64,000 nucleotides of DNA from Armatimonadota bacterium (GTDB taxonomy: Bacteria; Armatimonadota; SYMT01). Shown here one piece after another: positions 10,910 to 61,073 of this stretch. The stretch spans positions 192,001 to 256,000 of the forward strand of contig JAWLHY010000001.1 of NCBI GenBank assembly GCA_041690135.1, given 5' to 3'. Each line of letters begins with the position of its first letter. Position 1 is the stretch's first letter. The translations under genes and the position numbers were made by a program. The notes under the pieces are model-generated. The model made no database searches. It saw nothing but the letters and a program-made list of their open reading frames with translations, and had not been told where the DNA came from.

Positions 10910-12436
10910 TTAGTCAGGCTCGGAGGCGCCGTAGCCGGCGCGGATGCCGAAGCCGGGGCGCTGCTGGGCTCGCTGGGCGCGGGCGTGGGCTTCCGCCTCG
11001 GCATACTTTCTCCGGTTCGCCGTGACGCCCTCCACCGCCTGCAGGAAGTAATCGGTGAGCGAGCGCAGCGGCTGCTTCTGAACCCGGTCGTAGGCGTAGA
11101 GGTTCTTCCCGTCCTCCACCAGACGCTTGAGGTCGGCTCCGGTGAACCCGTTGGTCGCCGCCACCAGAGGCTGCAGATCCGGCTGGTCGAGCTCCGCGGG
11201 GAGGCCGGCGAGGTGCTGGCGCAGGATCTCCTCGCGGGCTGCCTCGTCAGGTAGCCGCATCTCCAGCCAGAGCTCGATGCGGCCGGAGCGGAGGAGGGCC
11301 GGCGGTATGTTGGCCACGTCCATGGCAGTCAGCATCACGCAGACCCGCTGGTTGCTTTCGCTCTCCAGGCCGTCGAGCATCGTCAGCAGGTACCGGTAGA
11401 GGCCCAACTCCTCGCCGGACTCGAAGATCACGTCGCTGTCGTCGATGAAGATGACGGAGGGGGCGTTCTCCTTCGCCGCCTGGAAGATCTGGTGGACTCT
11501 CCCGTAAAAAGATTGGGTCCCCGAGATGACGGTCCCGTCCACCAGGAAGAACTTGCCGCGCAGGCGGTGGGCGAGGGCCCGGCCGACGGTGGTCTTGCCG
11601 GTTCCGGGAGGTCCCGCGAGCAGCACGCCGCGCTTGGCTTTGAGGCCCAACTGCATCGCCAGCTCGTCCTGTTCCAGTGGAACCACGATGTTGGCCTCGA
11701 GGCTCCGGATGACTTCCTCGCAGCCCTTGAGATCCTGGAGGGCGACCTGCTGCACCTCCTCCAGATCGACGTTGCTGTTCAATCCCTGGGAGCGGAGGTA
11801 CTCGATGAAGCGCTCCGTATCCAGCTCGGGTTCCTGGCGCAGCCAGCGACAGGCGCCGGCGAGCTGGTGCCCGTCCAGGTGCGACGCGAAGCGGAAGATC
11901 CGGGGGTACTCCAGGCGATCCGCCACCTCCGCGTCGAGCATCCGGTGGCAGAGAAAGTCGTAGTCTTCCGCTTCGAAGTCGTCGATGCAGGCGCCGTACC
12001 CGCGCTGTTGGAAGGCGTCCGGCAGGCCGTAGTCCGCCCCCACGACGAGGCGTTTACCCGTCTCAACCACGTAGGCGGCGATCGTCATGGCCGGGGCCTC
12101 CAGCAACCCGCTCCGGGGATAACCGCCGGAACATCCGGAGACCACGCGGATGATCAGGTGCAGGTCGTCGAGAATCACCGTATCGTGCTCTCGCAGCGCA
12201 TCCATCACCATCCGCTCGAACGTCTCCTCAATCGCGAGTGGATGCCGGGACTGGAGACGGTCGATGAAGTCGCGCATGTTCAGGAACGTACCGCCCTGCT
12301 GGCGATGCAACTCCCGGAGCAGGGTGGTCTTTCCCAGGCCGTCGCCACCCCAGAGGTGGACGATGTTGCCGACGGAGAGGCTGCGCAGCACGGTCTGGTA
12401 GGCTCGCTGCTGCGCGGGTGAGAATTGTGCTTCCAT
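10910..12436 (-). CDS. Tandem AAA+ ATPase (degenerate N-terminal module plus classical C-terminal module)
   Basis: GGDGLGKTT/VILDD and GPPGTGKTT/IFIDDSD; ALLRSGR arginine-finger region; GFTGADL. Confidence 0.85.
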   Translation of the reverse strand: MEAQFSPAQQRAYQTVLRSLSVGNIVHLWGGDGLGKTTLLRELHRQQGGTFLNMRDFIDRLQSRHPLAIEETFERMVMDALREHDTVILDDLHLIIRVVSGCSGGYPRSGLLEAPAMTIAAYVVETGKRLVVGADYGLPDAFQQRGYGACIDDFEAEDYDFLCHRMLDAEVADRLEYPRIFRFASHLDGHQLAGACRWLRQEPELDTERFIEYLRSQGLNSNVDLEEVQQVALQDLKGCEEVIRSLEANIVVPLEQDELAMQLGLKAKRGVLLAGPPGTGKTTVGRALAHRLRGKFFLVDGTVISGTQSFYGRVHQIFQAAKENAPSVIFIDDSDVIFESGEELGLYRYLLTMLDGLESESNQRVCVMLTAMDVANIPPALLRSGRIELWLEMRLPDEAAREEILRQHLAGLPAELDQPDLQPLVAATNGFTGADLKRLVEDGKNLYAYDRVQKQPLRSLTDYFLQAVEGVTANRRKYAEAEAHARAQRAQQRPGFGIRAGYGASEPD

Positions 12437-12460
12437 AGGAAGGCGGGGCGCCGTGGCCCC

Positions 12461-12589
12461 GGCGGTGTGCGGCGCGTGTGGGGCCGCACGGGTCAGGTCA
12501 TCCCGGCAGGGGGTCCTTGCCGGGATGACGGGCTGTCGCGAGGAGTGTACCCGAAAAGGGTAGGGGCGTCCACTAATTAAGGCCGGGGC
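12461..12589. repeat. Left direct repeat of the island (uninterrupted copy)
   Basis: 12479-12589 matches 17549-17659 with 2 mismatches; 12461-12490 matches 17367-17396 with 2 mismatches; contains hairpin GTCATCCCGGCA...TGCCGGGATGAC. Confidence 0.9.
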
Positions 12590-12599
12590 GGACGCCGAC

Positions 12600-12760
12600 T
12601 CACCGCAGATTGCATTCACTGTTGTTGATGGCCTCATGATCGGAAACTCCCGCCTGATGCTGGAAGAGGACCAAGCGGATCATCATGGATGGCGACACGC
12701 TCGGGTGGCCATCAGTCCCACAGTCCAGGACGGCGACGGTGCCAACGGGGGAAACGTCCG
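12600..12760 (-). pseudogene. Transposase N-terminal remnant (DUF772; IS1182/IS5-like)
   Basis: VAVLDCGTDGHPSVSPSMMIRLVLFQHQAGVSDHEAINNSECNLR* resembles the GRPSVPP...LLQ...GVSD.EA...DLRW segment of IS1182-type transposases; truncated by a stop. Confidence 0.55.
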
Positions 12761-13429
12761 GCTTCGCCGCCGCCAGCTGGGCATGCAAAGAATGGCAGGG
12801 TGTCTTGATGCACAAACATCGCGCTGCGGCTCCCGCTCCAGGAGCCGCGGTGGGGCGGGCTAATGGCAGCGCGGTTTACTGGCGATGAGCATGTCGGGCA
12901 GTCCCCCACGTACTGAAAAGGCGAAGCGGGAGCGGGCTGAAAGTACCCGGGCACGTGATGGTCAGGCCTGAGCCATCGGCTTCGGAAGAGGCACGCTATC
13001 AGGGAACCTGTCGGCCCCGACATTCACTCCACTCGCCCGGAAGACCACAACCCGGTAGCCCCAACTCGAACTAACTACGACCGCGTGGCACGCGCTCTCG
13101 GTCAGCGACGGCGCCCATGCGCTATGCACATACCGGCTTGCGTTCGAGCGCTTGTGGTATGCGCTGGAGCGCCGGGACCATGGAGACGTGGAATGGTGGT
13201 ATGGCTCATCCATTAGACCAACCCGGTTGGAGGCGAGCTGCGGAACTCGGGAAAACCTTCAGAATGAAGAAGGTAAGTGCAGCGGTCAAGATGAAACATA
13301 TCCAACATCAGCCAAACAGCCTAGGTACCGGCTGTCAAGATGCCAAGCGGCTTGCAATCTGACCTAATTGGAGTACATCCTAACATGCTCCCTAAGGGAT
13401 GTGTGGGAGAAACTGAGCAGTTTCAAAAA

Positions 13430-13510
13430 CCGTGGCGGGTGCGGTTGCCCGTCGCCCGCCACGGAATGGAATTCCGCGGCTACTGCAGAGTGAAACCCCT
13501 GCGGGGTTGA
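13430..13510. repeat. REP-like palindromic cluster upstream of the NLR-like gene
   Basis: CCGTGGCGGG..CCCGCCACGG, GCCACGGAAT-GGA-ATTCCGCGGC and AACCCCTGCGGGGTT hairpins. Confidence 0.5.
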
Positions 13511-13580
13511 CACGGCACCATACCGGTCCAAATCTGCGCAGTTACTCCCCCCTACCCCTTAGTGTCGTGACATTACTCAT

Positions 13581-16500
13581 ATGACCAACATGCGCGTTTT
13601 CAACTGGCTCCACCTTACTGACCTGCACTACGGGCTGACGGAACAAGTGCATCTCTGGCCCAACGTCAGAACATCCCTTTTTGAGGATCTTGGCCGCATT
13701 CACGACACAGCAGGGCCATGGCATGCGGTCCTGTTCACAGGAGATCTTGTCCAAAGCGGCGATGAAAAGGAGTTCAACGCACTCACTGACGAGGTTTTCG
13801 GCCCACTTTGGGAAAGACTCTCGGTCTTGGGTTCCCCATCTCCAACTTTGCTGACTGTCCCGGGCAATCACGACTTGTCCCGCCCCAAGGGGAAACATCC
13901 ATCTGCTGCATTACGCCAACTGCTAAGGCCCCAAGGCTTGCTGGAAGTCTCGGGTGAATTCTGGGATGAGCCTGATTCGGAATACCGGCAAGTCATAGAC
14001 GAAGCATTCAAAAACTATCAATCTTGGTTACGCGCCGCTCACTATAGGAATGGCGTCCAAATAGCCGAGGGACTTCTCCCAGGTGATTTTGCCGCTTCCA
14101 TCGAACTCGCTTATCCCACCACCAATCTGAAGATAGGAATAGCTGGTGTAAATACCACATTTCTTCAATTAATTGCCGGAGACTTTGAGAAAAAGCTTGC
14201 GTGGCACGTCAAACAACTTCACCAAGCATGTGGAGAAGATATATCGAGATGGGCCCATAGCCATGATGCTTGTATTCTGTTAACCCACCAGGGGCCGTCA
14301 TGGCTCGATGAGCAGTCGCGAGAAGACACATACCCCGAGATAAATCCAGCTGGACGATTCGCCGTTCATCTTTTTGGGCATATGCACGATACAGCAGTCC
14401 GTTCGGCAATTGTGGGAGGAGGGGAGTCGATCCGGCTGTGGCAAACCCGATCCCTCTTTGGGCTGGAGAAGTATGGGGAGCCTCCCACATTTGATCGGCA
14501 ACATGGCTATAGCGCAGGACGTCTCCAATTCGACGAACAATCGGCGACAATTCGCCTATGGCCCAGGCGGGCATTTAAGGATGCTAATGGTTGGAGATTC
14601 GGGCGTGATGACGAGAAATGTATACTACGAGAATTCGACGGGGGCACAGAGCCAGACTCGGTTGTTCGGAAAAACAGTGTGGCCACTGCAGGGAAAACAT
14701 TCTCTGGCAGTTACCCTGATGCTGCGATGGCCAGAACGCCATCTCCACCTGCAAAGCCTCACCCGGTAGTACCAACGATCTCAAAGTGGTCGTGGCCCTA
14801 TCAAGAGCCAAAGTTCAGACCTTATTGTGAGGCGGTTTGTAAGGCGCACAGCCATATTCGATTCGTAGAAATACCGCATCTGAAGGATGTATCCGATGTG
14901 GAGATGGACAGCCTTTATGTGGAACCGCATCTGTGCGTAGAAGAATTGGACCCCGACCTACCGACGTTCCGTTGGCCGTTAACGCTGGACGTGCTATCCG
15001 TGTTGCGTGGACATCGTCATGTAGTGCTTTTAGGAGACCCAGGATCAGGAAAGTCCACTCTTGTGAGTTGTATCGCTTGGCAGTTGTGTCGGCCGACGCC
15101 TAGCCCCACTAATGCATTGGCTAAGCAGTTCGCTGGGTGTATTCCAATCCCGATGATCCTTCGAGAACTCCGGCTCAAGGCAGATATAACCTGGGAAGGC
15201 CTACTTGACGCATTCTTGGAACATCGTATCGGTAGGCTACTCGGTGATCGGCAGACCATTCAAGAACTACTCAATAGCGGGCGGGCTGTGGTGCTCCTGG
15301 ATGGATTGGATGAAGTAGGAAATCTGGCCATTCGCAGGCGCTTGAAAGATGCTGTTCACGAGGGGCTAGCCGCCAGTCCAAACAGTATTTGGCTACTAAC
15401 ATCGCGGGTGGTAGGGTATGATGCAGTTCCGTTCCACTATAGAGTGGAAGAGGCCCCTCGAAGTACTGCTATCCGAACTACGGATGGGAAGACTGTATCA
15501 AGCCGCAACGAGATTCAGGTCACTGTGGCTGAGCGATTTTTTCTAGCGCCCTTCAACGACGATCAGATTGGAGAGTTCTCGTTAAAATGGTACACGCAAC
15601 ATGAGCGTGAACAAGAGGTAATTGCGCTGAATGCAGAAGGCTTTGTTAATGCAATCCGAGAAAACTCTGGCACGCAGCGGCTGGCAAGAATTCCGTATTT
15701 ACTTACATTGATGGCTCTTATTCATCATAAGAATGCCCGTCTGCCCCATGGTCGCACCGAACTTTATGAAAGGATTGCTACAGCATATCTTGAGTCTATT
15801 GATGTACGACGACATCTAGATCAATTACCGTACTCATTGTCCCAGAAGAAGCGTTGGCTAGCATATGTAGCCTATCAGATGCAACTTAGGCGGTCTAAAG
15901 GTGCAAATCGGACCGAGCAGAGCCAAATACTTGCTAGTAATCAAGAGGTCGAGCGCTGGATCAAGGATGCAATGACAGAGTCCATTGAAGGTTCTGCAGA
16001 TGAAGCAAAAGTACTTCTGGACTATTTCGCAAAGCGGAGTGGGCTTCTTCTCCCGCGGGGTGAGGGGAAGTTTGCATTCATGCACCTATCGCTCCAAGAA
16101 TATTTTGCGGCTTGTTTCATGGAAGCGCGACTGACAGCATCCCGCTTTGCTTCTGATAGGCGCAAACACAATCCATCGGACAAGCAGTTGCGAGCGTGGG
16201 CAAATGATGAAGGGTGGCGCGAAGCGTTTGTACTTCTTTTTGAACTCTTGTCAGAGAAGTCTATTTCTGAAACTGAGGCGTTCCTGAAACATCTATTTGA
16301 GGGGCGACTGCCATCTGATACAGGTGGGCAAGAGTTCACAGCCGCTGGATTGTTAGCGGAGCTTGCTACAGATCCGTTTGTATCCTTCACTGCGGAGACT
16401 CGTCGGAAATGTAGGCAAGACGCTTGGAGATGGATGTTTAAGCAAGGCGAGCGAAGTCATTACAGCAGAAACAACGTGACCCGAGCATTTGTGCGGGAGG

Positions 16501-17144
16501 CTCAAGGTGATTTGCAAAGAGCGTGGAAGGCGGCTGCGCTGAGCGAACAAGAGCTAGTGAGGGTAAAGAGATTGGATCTTAGTGGATGCTCTTCACTCTG
16601 CGATTTGTCACCACTCAGGTTGCTGCAGAATTTGGAACATTTGGAGCTTCGTCAGTGTCCTGGAATAAGGGATCTTAGTGTGCTCGGAGAATTGAAAGGG
16701 TTGAAGTTGTTAGATTTGGATGGCTGTGCGACAGGCTGTGCTATTGAGTCGGTTGTTGTGAATCTCGAGGAGTTAAATGAGCTTAGCGTAAGTGAACCTC
16801 TGGATTTGTCATGTTTGTCTCACCTGACCAAGTTGCGTTGTTTGCATTTGCACTTCCCTATAGAGGGAGACCTGGATCTGTCGGCGCTGGCTAGGCTTCA
16901 ATCATTAGAGATGATTTGTTGTGAACCAGGGAGAAGAGTGATGCTGGCCAATGAGTTCGTGGCGAACCCATCACTGATAATCTCTCCAGGAGTCAGAAGC
17001 TTGTACGAAGAATCTTCGGGGAGACGCCGTATTCGTGTTTCGAGAGACACGCAGACGAGTCGCGGAAATGCATTGGGGGGCAGCGAAGATATTCAGGGTG
17101 ATACACTAAGGAAGGCTAGGCTTGGCCGGCCCCGGAGGACGTAA
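13581..17144 (+). CDS. Calcineurin-like metallophosphoesterase + NACHT (STAND) NTPase + leucine-rich repeats; bacterial NLR-like protein
   Basis: LHLTDLH, FTGD, VPGNHD and GHMH phosphoesterase motifs; GDPGSGKST Walker A, LLDGLDE Walker B, LLTSR, PYLLTLMA, FAFMHLSLQEYF; C-terminal LDLSGC..L.DLSPL LRRs. Confidence 0.92.
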   Translation: MTNMRVFNWLHLTDLHYGLTEQVHLWPNVRTSLFEDLGRIHDTAGPWHAVLFTGDLVQSGDEKEFNALTDEVFGPLWERLSVLGSPSPTLLTVPGNHDLSRPKGKHPSAALRQLLRPQGLLEVSGEFWDEPDSEYRQVIDEAFKNYQSWLRAAHYRNGVQIAEGLLPGDFAASIELAYPTTNLKIGIAGVNTTFLQLIAGDFEKKLAWHVKQLHQACGEDISRWAHSHDACILLTHQGPSWLDEQSREDTYPEINPAGRFAVHLFGHMHDTAVRSAIVGGGESIRLWQTRSLFGLEKYGEPPTFDRQHGYSAGRLQFDEQSATIRLWPRRAFKDANGWRFGRDDEKCILREFDGGTEPDSVVRKNSVATAGKTFSGSYPDAAMARTPSPPAKPHPVVPTISKWSWPYQEPKFRPYCEAVCKAHSHIRFVEIPHLKDVSDVEMDSLYVEPHLCVEELDPDLPTFRWPLTLDVLSVLRGHRHVVLLGDPGSGKSTLVSCIAWQLCRPTPSPTNALAKQFAGCIPIPMILRELRLKADITWEGLLDAFLEHRIGRLLGDRQTIQELLNSGRAVVLLDGLDEVGNLAIRRRLKDAVHEGLAASPNSIWLLTSRVVGYDAVPFHYRVEEAPRSTAIRTTDGKTVSSRNEIQVTVAERFFLAPFNDDQIGEFSLKWYTQHEREQEVIALNAEGFVNAIRENSGTQRLARIPYLLTLMALIHHKNARLPHGRTELYERIATAYLESIDVRRHLDQLPYSLSQKKRWLAYVAYQMQLRRSKGANRTEQSQILASNQEVERWIKDAMTESIEGSADEAKVLLDYFAKRSGLLLPRGEGKFAFMHLSLQEYFAACFMEARLTASRFASDRRKHNPSDKQLRAWANDEGWREAFVLLFELLSEKSISETEAFLKHLFEGRLPSDTGGQEFTAAGLLAELATDPFVSFTAETRRKCRQDAWRWMFKQGERSHYSRNNVTRAFVREAQGDLQRAWKAAALSEQELVRVKRLDLSGCSSLCDLSPLRLLQNLEHLELRQCPGIRDLSVLGELKGLKLLDLDGCATGCAIESVVVNLEELNELSVSEPLDLSCLSHLTKLRCLHLHFPIEGDLDLSALARLQSLEMICCEPGRRVMLANEFVANPSLIISPGVRSLYEESSGRRRIRVSRDTQTSRGNALGGSEDIQGDTLRKARLGRPRRT

Positions 17145-17396
17145 GGGGTTAGGGCATAGGTATCAAATTAGGCCTGATTGGTTACTTCTGCAGGCACGCC
17201 GAGGCCATTCGGAACGGCTCGCAATGGCAACCGCTGTTACGGTTGGGGATACGCTGACTCGTTGTCCGGCGTCTGAATCCGGGGCTGATGCGTTCCGAAA
17301 TGCGGCATTTTTGGGCCTCGACAAGCTCGGGGAAAGCTTATCTTGATACCGATGCCGTTAGGGTGTGGCGGTGTGCAGCGCGAGTGGGGCCGCACG

Positions 17397-17550
17397 CAGG
17401 GCGGTTCAGGTTTTGGCGAAAGCTACTTCGCAGCCCCGGAGGGGCGACCGGACATTAGCCGGGGGTGCGAACCCCCGGATGCAGAGCGCGCAGAGAACGA
17501 GCCCCGGAAGGGCGGCAGAGCTCAAATCCTACGAAAACTGAACCGCCCTG
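17397..17550. mobile_element. 154-bp MITE with CAGGGCGGTTCAG terminal inverted repeats and 10-bp target site duplication
   Basis: Left CAGGGCGGTTCAGGTTTT, right AAAACTGAACCGCCCTG; GGGCCGCACG duplicated at 17387-17396 and 17551-17560; single copy at the empty site 12481-12490. Confidence 0.88.
17432..17520 (+). repeat. REP family B (AGCCCCGGAGGGGCG...TAGCCGGGGGTGCGAACCCCCGG), inside the MITE
   Basis: Reverse-complement copies at 60902-60990 and 44879-44926. Confidence 0.75.
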
Positions 17551-17646
17551 GGGCCGCACGGGTCAGGTCATCCCGGCAGAGGGTCCTTGCCGGGATGACG
17601 GGCTGTCGCGAGGAGTGTACCCGAAAAGGGTAGGGACGTCCACTAA

Positions 17647-19194
17647 TTAAGGCCGGGGCAGGTAGAACAGGCCGGTGCGGGCGCCGACCCAGACGCCGCC
17701 CCCCGCGACCGGATGGAGTGCCTGGAGTTCCGTATCGAGGAATTCGATCCGGTCGTTGAGGCGGAGCACGCCGGCCGTACTCACTTTCCAGAGACCCCGG
17801 CGGGTGGTAACCAGGAGTGAGTTCCCTCCGGCGGAGGCGATAGCCGTGACGTTTTCTCCCGCCAACTCTGGTACCGACACCCAACGGTCGCCATGATACC
17901 GGACCAGGCCTCCGACGAAGGTCCCCGCGTAGAGGCTATCCCCGCGCGCGTGAAGGGCGGTGATCCAGTCGTCCGTCAGGCCGTGCCGCTCGTCGTGCCA
18001 GCGGACCGTGCCGCGGGAGCGCGAGACCTCCGCAATGCCGCGGCCCTGGGTGCCGACCCACATGCGGTCGCCGCGAGGAAGCAGGGCGGTCACCGGCAGG
18101 CCCTGGAGATCCGGCAGCTTGAGGGAGTGCTTCCAGGCCTGGCCGTCGAATTCGCTCCACCCGCCCCATTGACCGGCGTAGAGGCGTTTCCCGTCCGTGG
18201 TGAGCACAGAGACCTGCCGGCGAGGAAGCCGGAACACCTCCCGGCGCCAGCCTTCCGGGGTCCAGCGGTCCACCTTTCCATTGCCGTGCCGCAGGTAGAG
18301 GGCATTCCGGAAGACGGCCATCTGCCGCGGCGCGTTTGAAGAGAGCAGGGGGGAGCCTACCCGTGACCAACGGTCTCCGGCCTTGACCACGAGCCCCTCC
18401 TCCAGCGTACTCACGAACAGCCGACCCTGAAACTGTGCGAGGGCCTGGCAGTTGTGGTCCTGCGGGCCGCCGGGCATGGTGACCGGCTCGACCCTGGGGC
18501 CGCGACTCCGCCACAGGCCATGACGCGCGGTGCCGATCCAGAGGGTGCCGTCCTGTTTTGCCAGCGCCGTGATTTCTCGCGCCGGCGCAGGGAGCGAGGG
18601 GCCGGCGGGCTTCCATGCGGCTCCGTTCCAGGCGTAGAGGCGATCGCCGAACGAGGCCGCCCACAGCTCGCCGGGCCGTGGCAGCAGGGCACTCAGGTGG
18701 GTACCCGTGCCCGGAGGCATGCCGACGTCGCGCCAACCCGCGCCGGTTTCCATCCGCAGGCCGGCGAACGTGGCGGCACACCGGCGACCCTGCCAGCGGG
18801 TGGTGCAAAGGGTTCCTTCCAGCGCCGCATTGATGGGCTTCGACTCCCGCGTCTCTTCGTGACGCCACTGGCCGGCGTGCCACACGGCGTGGGAGCGGGG
18901 GAAGACGGCCCGGACGCCGGGCTCTCCGGGAAGGAAGGCCCGTACCTCGTGCGAGGGGAGCCCCTCCGCGCGAGTGAACCGGGTCCACTGCCCCTGGGGG
19001 CTTCTTCGCAGAATGCCTCCCGCGGTTCCGACCCACAGCGTACCCTCCGCCTCCGCCCACAGGGCCGTCACCCGGCGGGTGCTGGTGAACACCTGGACCG
19101 GTGCCCCGGCCGGTCGGGTGTCACCGCCGGCCGGGGGTAGGGGAGCCGCCCCGAGCACGGCTCCCAGTCCCAGCAGCAACAGGACCCGCGTCAT
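17647..19194 (-). CDS. Secreted beta-propeller protein (two-component regulator propeller-like repeats)
   Basis: Signal peptide; repeated LWVGT.GG / GL..D.ITAL blades. Confidence 0.8.
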   Translation of the reverse strand: MTRVLLLLGLGAVLGAAPLPPAGGDTRPAGAPVQVFTSTRRVTALWAEAEGTLWVGTAGGILRRSPQGQWTRFTRAEGLPSHEVRAFLPGEPGVRAVFPRSHAVWHAGQWRHEETRESKPINAALEGTLCTTRWQGRRCAATFAGLRMETGAGWRDVGMPPGTGTHLSALLPRPGELWAASFGDRLYAWNGAAWKPAGPSLPAPAREITALAKQDGTLWIGTARHGLWRSRGPRVEPVTMPGGPQDHNCQALAQFQGRLFVSTLEEGLVVKAGDRWSRVGSPLLSSNAPRQMAVFRNALYLRHGNGKVDRWTPEGWRREVFRLPRRQVSVLTTDGKRLYAGQWGGWSEFDGQAWKHSLKLPDLQGLPVTALLPRGDRMWVGTQGRGIAEVSRSRGTVRWHDERHGLTDDWITALHARGDSLYAGTFVGGLVRYHGDRWVSVPELAGENVTAIASAGGNSLLVTTRRGLWKVSTAGVLRLNDRIEFLDTELQALHPVAGGGVWVGARTGLFYLPRP

Positions 19195-44821: not shown

Positions 44822-44926
44822 CACCCACTTCGTGGGTACCCGACGCATGCGCCAGGGCTTTTCTGTGTGGGCGTCAAGTCCGGGGGCTCGCGCCCCCGGC
44901 TATCCTCTCTTCGCCCCTCCGGGGCT
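44822..44926. repeat. REP-like elements between the porin gene and amtB
   Basis: CACCCACTTCGTGGGTACCC (similar to motifs at ~51625 and ~52100) and a family B copy CCGGGGGCTCGCGCCCCCGGCTAT..CGCCCCTCCGGGGCT. Confidence 0.6.
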
Positions 44927-60901: not shown

Positions 60902-61073
60902 CTCTGTCGCCCCTCCGGGGCTCTTTCATACGGTCGGCACGTCCGGGGGTTTGCACCCCCGGCTATGCTCTTTCCGCCCCTCCGGGGCTCCGAAGCGGCC
61001 CTCCGGAGCTCCGAAGCACACCTCCGGGGCTCCGAACCGCCCCTCCGGGGCTCCGAAGCGCCCGTCCGGGGCT
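60902..61073. repeat. REP family B copy extended by 21-bp tandem repeats
   Basis: Reverse complement of 17432-17520, then GCCCCTCCGGGGCTCCGAAGC x4 plus a partial unit (60976-61073). Confidence 0.8.

Follow-up and report, generated by a model that had tools for sequence, protein, structure and literature searches.

What does a gene that joins a phosphoesterase to an immune-type switch do when it stands by itself in the genome of an Armatimonadota bacterium? The question is raised by the open reading frame (ORF) at 13581-17144 (+ strand) of the 64,000-nucleotide stretch analysed here, which we call the window (GenBank assembly GCA_041690135.1, contig JAWLHY010000001.1, positions 192,001 to 256,000). 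The order of parts in its product is an N-terminal calcineurin-like metallophosphoesterase (MPE), a central NACHT module and C-terminal leucine-rich repeats (LRRs). Our reading, which draws on sequence comparison, is that this is likely a stand-alone, horizontally acquired anti-phage immune protein related to NLRs (a NACHT-clade STAND protein).

The frame is intact and stays open across 1187 codons when counted from the ATG at 13581. In the public record, the same protein is called at 1184 aa, from the second ATG, 13590; 30 orthologues start at the matching Met, and therefore 13590 rather than 13581 is probably the true start. Along the + strand, the MPE module (residues 5-360; 13593-14660) is followed by a Pro-rich variable linker (residues 361-410; 14661-14810), the NACHT module with a conserved segment ahead of the P-loop and with helical and winged-helix parts (residues 411-850; 14811-16130), a helical spacer (residues 851-990; 16131-16550), a short predicted LRR sensor of 5-6 units (residues 991-1115; 16551-16925) and a post-LRR segment that has a conserved SPGVRxL motif and a basic tail (16926-17141). 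A preliminary description of this DNA, made from the letters alone, had proposed such an intact tripartite protein, and the open frame, the domain matches and the conserved motifs bear this out; every motif it named (DLH, GD, GNHD, GHMH, Walker A/B and winged-helix) is present. Calcineurin-like MPEs have a signature of five metal/catalytic motifs, DxH, GD, GNH(D/E), H and GHxH, which appear here as DLH (14-16), GD (54-55), GNHD (95-98), H236 and GHMH (266-269). For NACHT, the signature combines the Walker A pattern GxxxxGK[ST], the Walker B pattern hhhhDGhDE, in which there is another acidic residue, and the sensor-1 Arg; the corresponding segments are GDPGSGKST (485-493), VVLLDGLDEV (570-579) and TSR (607-609), followed by the winged-helix motif FMHLSLQEYFAA at residues 833-844. 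In an alignment of the protein with 30 orthologues (31 sequences), the MPE, Walker A/B, TSR and H835 residues are invariant or, for D14, H16 and D55, at least 90% conserved; Walker A residues 485-492 and the Walker B acidic residues D574, D577 and E578 are among the invariant ones. H835 is invariant within FxHLSLQEYF and is a candidate equivalent of NLRC4 H443.

Pfam Metallophos (PF00149) matches residues 10-269 with 36.3 bits against a gathering cut-off of 21.5, and NLRC4_HD2 gives a weak match on residues 835-903 (E 0.065). Many orthologues bear a precomputed PF05729 annotation, and orthologues bear PF12799 as well. The C-terminal part (residues 977-1113) finds 30 LRR sequences in the PDB at E ≤ 0.01, including internalin B, the designed LRR 4r58 (E 1.5e-7, the best value) and the plant NLR RPP1, and six LxxLx[LIVM] registers lie between residues 1009 and 1111. 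Behind the repeats, SPGVRxL and then an Arg/Lys-rich tail close most orthologues (here residues 1135-1187; 16983-17141). The last 58 residues hold 13 K/R and 6 D/E; as most orthologues share this basic character, a frameshift artefact does not explain the tail, and nucleic-acid or membrane binding are among its possible roles. A TRADD-N domain between MPE and NACHT, an idea taken from Kaur et al. 2021, was considered and rejected, as there is no Pfam match and the conserved segment at 411-470 spans only about 60 aa.

Comparison with relatives indicates that the MPE and NACHT-LRR halves have separate histories and that the variable linker is the point of effector swapping. The MPE module (residues ~5-362) is reused at approximately 50-57% identity on nSTAND4, nSTAND5 and NACHT+HEAT+winged helix-turn-helix proteins; it is also found behind an EAD1 adaptor domain and at the C-terminal end of a 1472-aa protein. 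On the other half, many NACHT-LRR relatives of 750-950 aa have no N-terminal effector, and some have another effector in place of the MPE. In one protein (P0048), SIR2_2 replaces the MPE on a NACHT-LRR part that is 49% identical over residues 395-1115, the homology stopping within the variable linker, and in a second (P0063), a caspase domain is joined to the NACHT-LRR half. In the available text of Kibby et al. (bioRxiv 2022 / Cell 2023), the discussion treats such combinatorial swapping as a hallmark of conflict systems.

To follow the family, we counted as orthologues those proteins that cover at least 90% of the query and share the Metallophos, NACHT and LRR annotations. Among the 120 matches listed from a collection of 5.8 billion proteins, at least 34 are full-length orthologues, at 41-61% identity, and those with organism names come from Acidobacteriota metagenome-assembled genomes (MAGs). 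An exhaustive scan of 1.84 billion representatives returned five full-length 50%-identity cluster representatives and 18,459 proteins matching at E ≤ 1e-3, a number that is this large because each half is common by itself. Among species-representative genomes, there are five loci that include the MPE part, all in Acidobacteriota MAGs. None of 40 relatives of the source genome has a full-length orthologue, and their matches begin at query residue 378 or later; the source genome itself has one copy of the gene and three further NACHT matches over the cut-off. In every full-length locus with flanks, the GC content of the orthologue is lower than that of its flanks. Mean orthologue identity to the query is 0.53 for the MPE, 0.14 for the linker, 0.56 for the nucleotide-binding part of the NACHT module, 0.69 for its helical/winged-helix part, 0.53 for the spacer, 0.40 for the LRR and 0.14 for the tail. 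The LRR is thus the least conserved folded region (40% vs 53-69% for the other folded parts), a variability in keeping with a sensor, and in the alignment, entire LRR units have been gained or lost in several orthologues. In one orthologue, from a Candidatus Angelobacter MAG (L020:10004-13506), the reading frame changes within the linker, which leaves an MPE ORF of 349 aa and a NACHT-LRR ORF of 805 aa; it may be a naturally two-gene version, a pseudogene or the product of faulty assembly.

The DNA around the gene points the same way as its distribution. GC content is approximately 0.45-0.56 across ~13150-17300 vs ~0.65 elsewhere in the window, and the gene has a GC of 0.486 at third codon positions (GC3) vs 0.82-0.89 in four flanking genes. 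The preliminary description had called this the only intact gene on a lower-GC island, and it is indeed the sole long ORF there; five small ORFs flanking it on the insert have no Pfam match at E ≤ 0.01. The island lies between two copies of a direct repeat. The left copy (12461-12589; 129 nt) is intergenic, contains a hairpin at 12497-12529 and sits 25 nt upstream of the start, at 12436, of an AAA ATPase gene (508-aa gene call P0249). The right copy is split into 17367-17396 (93% identity to the left copy) and 17549-17659 (98%) by a 152-nt dispersed element (17397-17548) that resembles a miniature inverted-repeat transposable element (MITE); it contains the final 13 nt and the stop codon of a beta-propeller gene (17647-19194, - strand). 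Across the 9.1-Mb assembly, both copies of the 129-nt repeat are found at this locus only, and deletion of one repeat unit (5070 nt) would leave the AAA ATPase gene with the propeller gene immediately upstream of it. Judged by composition and borders, the gene is horizontally acquired on a 5.07-kb repeat-bounded insert.

No recombinase gene or remnant was detected on the insert, the window has no tRNA, and there is no integrase or transposase near the repeat copies. Its left part (12590-13392) is unique non-coding DNA in which GC drops from ~0.64 to ~0.50 near 13150 and in which no gene remnants were detected; positions 12590-13390 have no other copy in the source genome or in six family genomes, except for one 38-nt match. 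No empty site was found: in G005, the family relative with the best assembly, homologues of the AAA ATPase and propeller genes are on separate contigs, and the four other genomes had no propeller match. One possibility for the source of the 129-nt duplication is Campbell-type integration of a circle with the same intergenic sequence.

The gene also appears to act by itself. Across 46 loci with the MPE module (219 ORFs, from three genes on either side and crude ORF calling), no neighbour family occurs in more than 2 loci, the recurring pairs looking like near-duplicate contigs, and none of the neighbours is a HAD partner. With no recurrent neighbour family, the protein is therefore stand-alone, which supports the single-gene reading of the preliminary description. 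That description had also set variable surroundings against a conserved housekeeping context, and the contexts of the orthologues indeed differ at every locus, yet without recognisable defence islands. In a Pyrinomonadaceae MAG (L017:7632-16881), the orthologue lies inside a pyrimidine-biosynthesis cluster, with orotidine monophosphate decarboxylase and dihydroorotate dehydrogenase genes (pyrD/pyrF-like) on one side and phosphoribosyltransferase, aspartate carbamoyltransferase and dihydroorotase-like genes (pyrB/pyrC-like) on the other, and has a GC of 0.54 vs ~0.63 in the flanks. Elsewhere, orthologues lie with SurA and ABC-F genes on one side and a nucleoside hydrolase gene on the other (L019), near TPR, response-regulator, laccase-like and ArsA genes (L020), near a PIN gene and an AcrB fragment (L045), or, at two loci (L047 and L016), among neighbours with no Pfam match.

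To place the effector, we compared the 16 MPE-module members with curated models. The NCBIfam model DS8_antiphage matches 16 of 16 (best E 4.3e-19) and DS9_1 matches 14, in contrast to one each for the SbcD, CpdA and Mre11 models; at PADLOC, PDC-S60 matches 15 and PDLC00736 ('Effector / Endonuclease') matches 12. With DS-8, DS-9A and PDC-S60 as the nearest curated models, the MPE module thus groups, by profile similarity, with defence-associated metallophosphatases. The literature on these systems was available in part, and what we say of it applies to those parts. DS-8, which combines a metallophosphatase and a NACHT part in one protein, protects E. coli, and catalytic or NACHT mutations abolish its defence (DefensePredictor, Science 2026, PMC13092281). 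The present protein resembles it in having an N-terminal metallophosphatase and a NACHT NTPase on one polypeptide, and differs in that the NACHT parts do not align. The DS-8 model NF053861 covers residues 11-275 only, with 34.1 bits (26.7 bits in the genome search) vs a cut-off of 790; the protein is therefore not a DS-8 equivalog and shares the architecture type only. In addition, the DS-8 metallophosphatase is called SMPDL3A-like in that report, whereas SMPDL3A is absent from the PDB sequence matches of the present MPE module. No LRR is mentioned for DS-8 in the available text.

The tripartite layout of effector, NACHT and sensor was described for bacterial NACHT proteins by Kibby et al., who count calcineurin-like phosphoesterases as effectors and LRRs as sensors. 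Winged-helix His mutants of their LRR-bearing bNACHT16 are toxic, and H835 of the present protein sits in the corresponding FxHxSxQEYF motif; the tested bNACHTs, as described in the available text, differ in that none has an MPE effector. So far as these sources go, metallophosphoesterase-NACHT proteins with LRR sensors are of a kind already in print (Kibby et al., DS-8), and the exact architecture may already be tabulated in Table S1 of Kibby et al. or in the DefensePredictor tables. A literature search that joined NACHT, metallophosphoesterase and phage, and did not cover supplementary tables, found no paper, and for metallophosphatase, NACHT and defense, only the DefensePredictor papers were relevant. 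The main points here are the LRR sensor, the MPE/SIR2/caspase swap series and the cleanly bounded insert without a recombinase.

Calcineurin-like MPEs also serve as the killing effectors of two further anti-phage systems, Metis (MisA) and PUA-Cal-HAD. The MisA/PUA-Cal effectors split NAD+ into NMN and AMP, and for PUA-Cal, conversion of dNDP to dNMP and cleavage of NAD+ are described in vitro (bioRxiv 10.1101/2025.11.05.686725, 10.64898/2026.01.15.699771); PUA-Cal has been placed in Calcineurin-CE, a family defined by Nicastro et al. 2023. These reactions are a plausible chemistry for the present MPE as well, which is a candidate Calcineurin-CE member on indirect grounds only, namely its effector position on several STAND types and its closer match to the DS-8 and DS-9A models than to SbcD, CpdA or Mre11. 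Their switch is a PUA-like domain that binds m6dAMP, to which one account adds a HAD phosphatase, whereas the present protein has a NACHT-LRR switch and no HAD or other conserved neighbour. The DS9_1 model represents a metallophosphatase gene paired with a HAD gene, a layout also seen in PUA-Cal-HAD, and matches residues 10-105 of our protein with 35 bits vs a cut-off of 420. The best PADLOC match, PDC-S60 (PDLC05051), appears to be a single protein of approximately 1000 aa with an N-terminal MPE; only that part aligns (residues 10-275 with positions 4-246 of the 1027-position profile; E 1.5e-12), and we found no mention of PDC-S60 in a literature search. Animal and plant NLRs and Avs proteins are, like our protein, built around a STAND NTPase, with an effector or adaptor at the N-terminus and a repeat sensor at the C-terminus; the present LRR, only 5-6 repeats long, aligns with that of RPP1 (7crb), a plant NLR. 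To our knowledge, MPE-class enzymes are not among the N-termini of eukaryotic NLRs.

On this basis, we propose that the NACHT module would keep the protein inactive at rest. The LRR, perhaps with help from the conserved motif and basic tail behind it, would recognise a molecule of a phage or mobile element or a perturbed host factor, upon which nucleotide-dependent oligomerisation via the NACHT module would gather the N-terminal MPE domains and turn them on. The binuclear-metal phosphoesterase would then destroy an essential phosphodiester- or pyrophosphate-linked metabolite, most likely NAD+ (yielding NMN and AMP) or the (d)NDP/(d)NTP pools, with DNA a less likely target, and the infected cell would be arrested (abortive infection). 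Depletion of nucleotides or NAD+ is favoured over DNA cleavage by a narrow lean rather than a firm preference. In the literature available to us, pyrophosphatase-type attack on NAD+/nucleotide pools is so far tied only to PUA-sensed systems, and mobility of a defence gene by duplication of a target of approximately 130 nt was not found described for such systems. We think it rather doubtful that the locus combines both novelties, i.e., a bacterial NLR that senses by genuine LRRs and attacks NAD+ or nucleotides in this manner, and a recombinase-less single-gene cassette that duplicates ~130 nt of the intergenic sequence it targets.

Several results weigh against a role in immunity. By Pfam score, the domains named in the preliminary description are above the cut-off for Metallophos, borderline for NACHT and below it for the repeats: at residues 479-612, Pfam NACHT scores 24.5 bits vs a cut-off of 26.7 in the whole-protein scan (28.4 bits, over the cut-off, at the same site in a six-frame search of the whole genome), and LRR_4 (24.7 bits vs a cut-off of 27), LRR_14 and the other LRR models on residues 986-1113 are all sub-threshold. 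At 5-6 repeats, the predicted LRR is also short. The kinship with known defence systems is likewise partial. PADLOC finds defence models for the MPE part, but both PADLOC and NCBIfam leave the protein unclassified, since matches are confined to this part and score far under the cut-offs; the six PADLOC matches at E ≤ 1 include no Avs model, and there is no Avs/bNACHT-type match either. Against the PDB, the MPE-module profile finds Lmo2642 (3.7e-5), Rv0805 (1e-4) and SbcD/Mre11 (~1e-3 to 6e-3), weak matches that span motifs I-III only. Neither the window nor the six orthologous loci contain a recognisable defence island, and the contexts are mostly housekeeping. No homologue was matched in phage records, and none of the 83 plasmid records matched reaches 80% coverage of the query; for the MPE, the best plasmid match is a solitary 'metallophosphoesterase' of 1103 aa from a Rhizobium plasmid. 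Finally, expression may be held back by the strong mismatch between the codons of the gene and those of its host.

These points leave room for three other explanations. One keeps the NLR-like defence logic and makes the MPE a nuclease that degrades DNA in the manner of Mre11/SbcD. The matches of the MPE-module profile to SbcD/Mre11 chains and the 12 of 16 members that match the 'Effector / Endonuclease' model are consistent with this, as is the basic C-terminal tail, which could bind nucleic acid. Yet the SbcD, CpdA and Mre11 models reach one member each as against 16 for DS-8 and 14 for DS-9A, a Pfam scan detected no Mre11 capping or DNA-binding domain, and the characterised defence relatives, as far as their descriptions were available, act on NAD+ or nucleotides; we therefore regard a nuclease as unlikely. 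Another is a STAND switch for housekeeping or signalling, in which the LRR would sense an endogenous ligand and the MPE would be a regulated cyclic-nucleotide or dinucleotide phosphodiesterase. The best sequence matches among solved structures are Lmo2642, Rv0805 and Icc, all class-III cyclic nucleotide monophosphate phosphodiesterases. A cyclic nucleotide is also considered as substrate by the authors of DS-8 (PMC13092281), and defence-island neighbours are lacking at this locus and the six orthologous ones. Such a switch would nevertheless have to be reconciled with an insert of foreign composition flanked by repeats, with a full-length orthologue in 0 of 40 related genomes and no conserved context or partner, and with SIR2 and caspase on the same chassis and the MPE module on unrelated STAND NTPases and behind EAD1, so that this explanation is very unlikely.

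The third explanation concerns the state of the gene rather than its function: it may be intact yet silent cargo, a recent arrival that is unexpressed or unadapted and heading for decay. The extreme codon mismatch would fit, as would the dispersed repeats of the host inserted on either side of the gene, the split of the L020 orthologue by a frame change, and the failure to find a sigma-70-like promoter in 12400-17800. The promoter scan, made with a sigma-70 consensus only, returned 0 sites vs 3.7 expected, and terminator-like sites (5) equalled expectation, so the scan is uninformative. Upstream of the gene, a dispersed repeat of approximately 168 nt (13393-13561, +), which belongs to a family of the host genome and which we aligned with two other genome copies, ends ~19 nt before the first ATG, and could provide the foreign gene with signals for its expression. 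Moreover, a frame of 1187 codons is fully open, with all catalytic residues intact, and we see only a slight chance that the gene is cargo of this kind. An immune protein remains the reading that we prefer.

If the protein is active, the family adds an LRR-sensing relative to DS-8, the sole validated metallophosphatase-NACHT system. The family has few members and clear limits, and MPE, SIR2 and caspase effectors on a chassis of approximately 50% identity form a natural effector-swap series, which could address both what MPE effectors destroy and what bacterial LRRs recognise. The locus further shows, in clean form, how a defence-type gene can sit outside defence islands, on an insert that holds one gene and has defined borders; solitary genes like this escape guilt-by-association searches.

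Besides the gene, the repeats on the insert deserve mention. The ~168-nt repeat forms a strong GC-rich hairpin and has 24 matches in its own genome, including itself, and no Rfam match. The MITE-like element inside the right repeat copy carries terminal inverted repeats of 17 nt, has ~10 nt of its flank duplicated, and gives 42 genome matches, with other copies in the window at, for example, ~44880-44926 and ~60902-60995. Inside it, at 17432-17478 (-), is a match to Acido-Lenti-1 with 37 bits, equal to the gathering score, which is the sole Rfam match within 12300-17800. The Acido-Lenti-1 model has 32 matches in the genome, 22 of them over the cut-off. As it is repeated together with the MITE-like element, Acido-Lenti-1 may in this genome be the core of a mobile repeat and not a free-standing small RNA gene.

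Other genes of the window encode G8/CEMIP, AAA ATPase, Reg_prop propeller, VIT-VWA, WD40, DUF1501, PSCyt2/PSD1, ABC-2 and PspA proteins; of these, DUF1501 and PSCyt2/PSD1 are suggestive of Planctomycetota. At PADLOC, these neighbours yield only a weak IetA-like match, to the AAA core, and a weak HEAT-ARM_XIII match for the WD40 protein (E 3.9e-7). The IetA-like matches belong to the AAA ATPase next to the insert (10910-12436, - strand; 508 aa), with E 1.7e-15. Its relatives, at 60-66% identity, are found in Armatimonadota, Planctomycetes, Acidobacteria and Actinomycetota MAGs, mostly on short contigs; given a spread that is unusually wide for a chromosomal gene, the AAA ATPase gene may itself be mobile.

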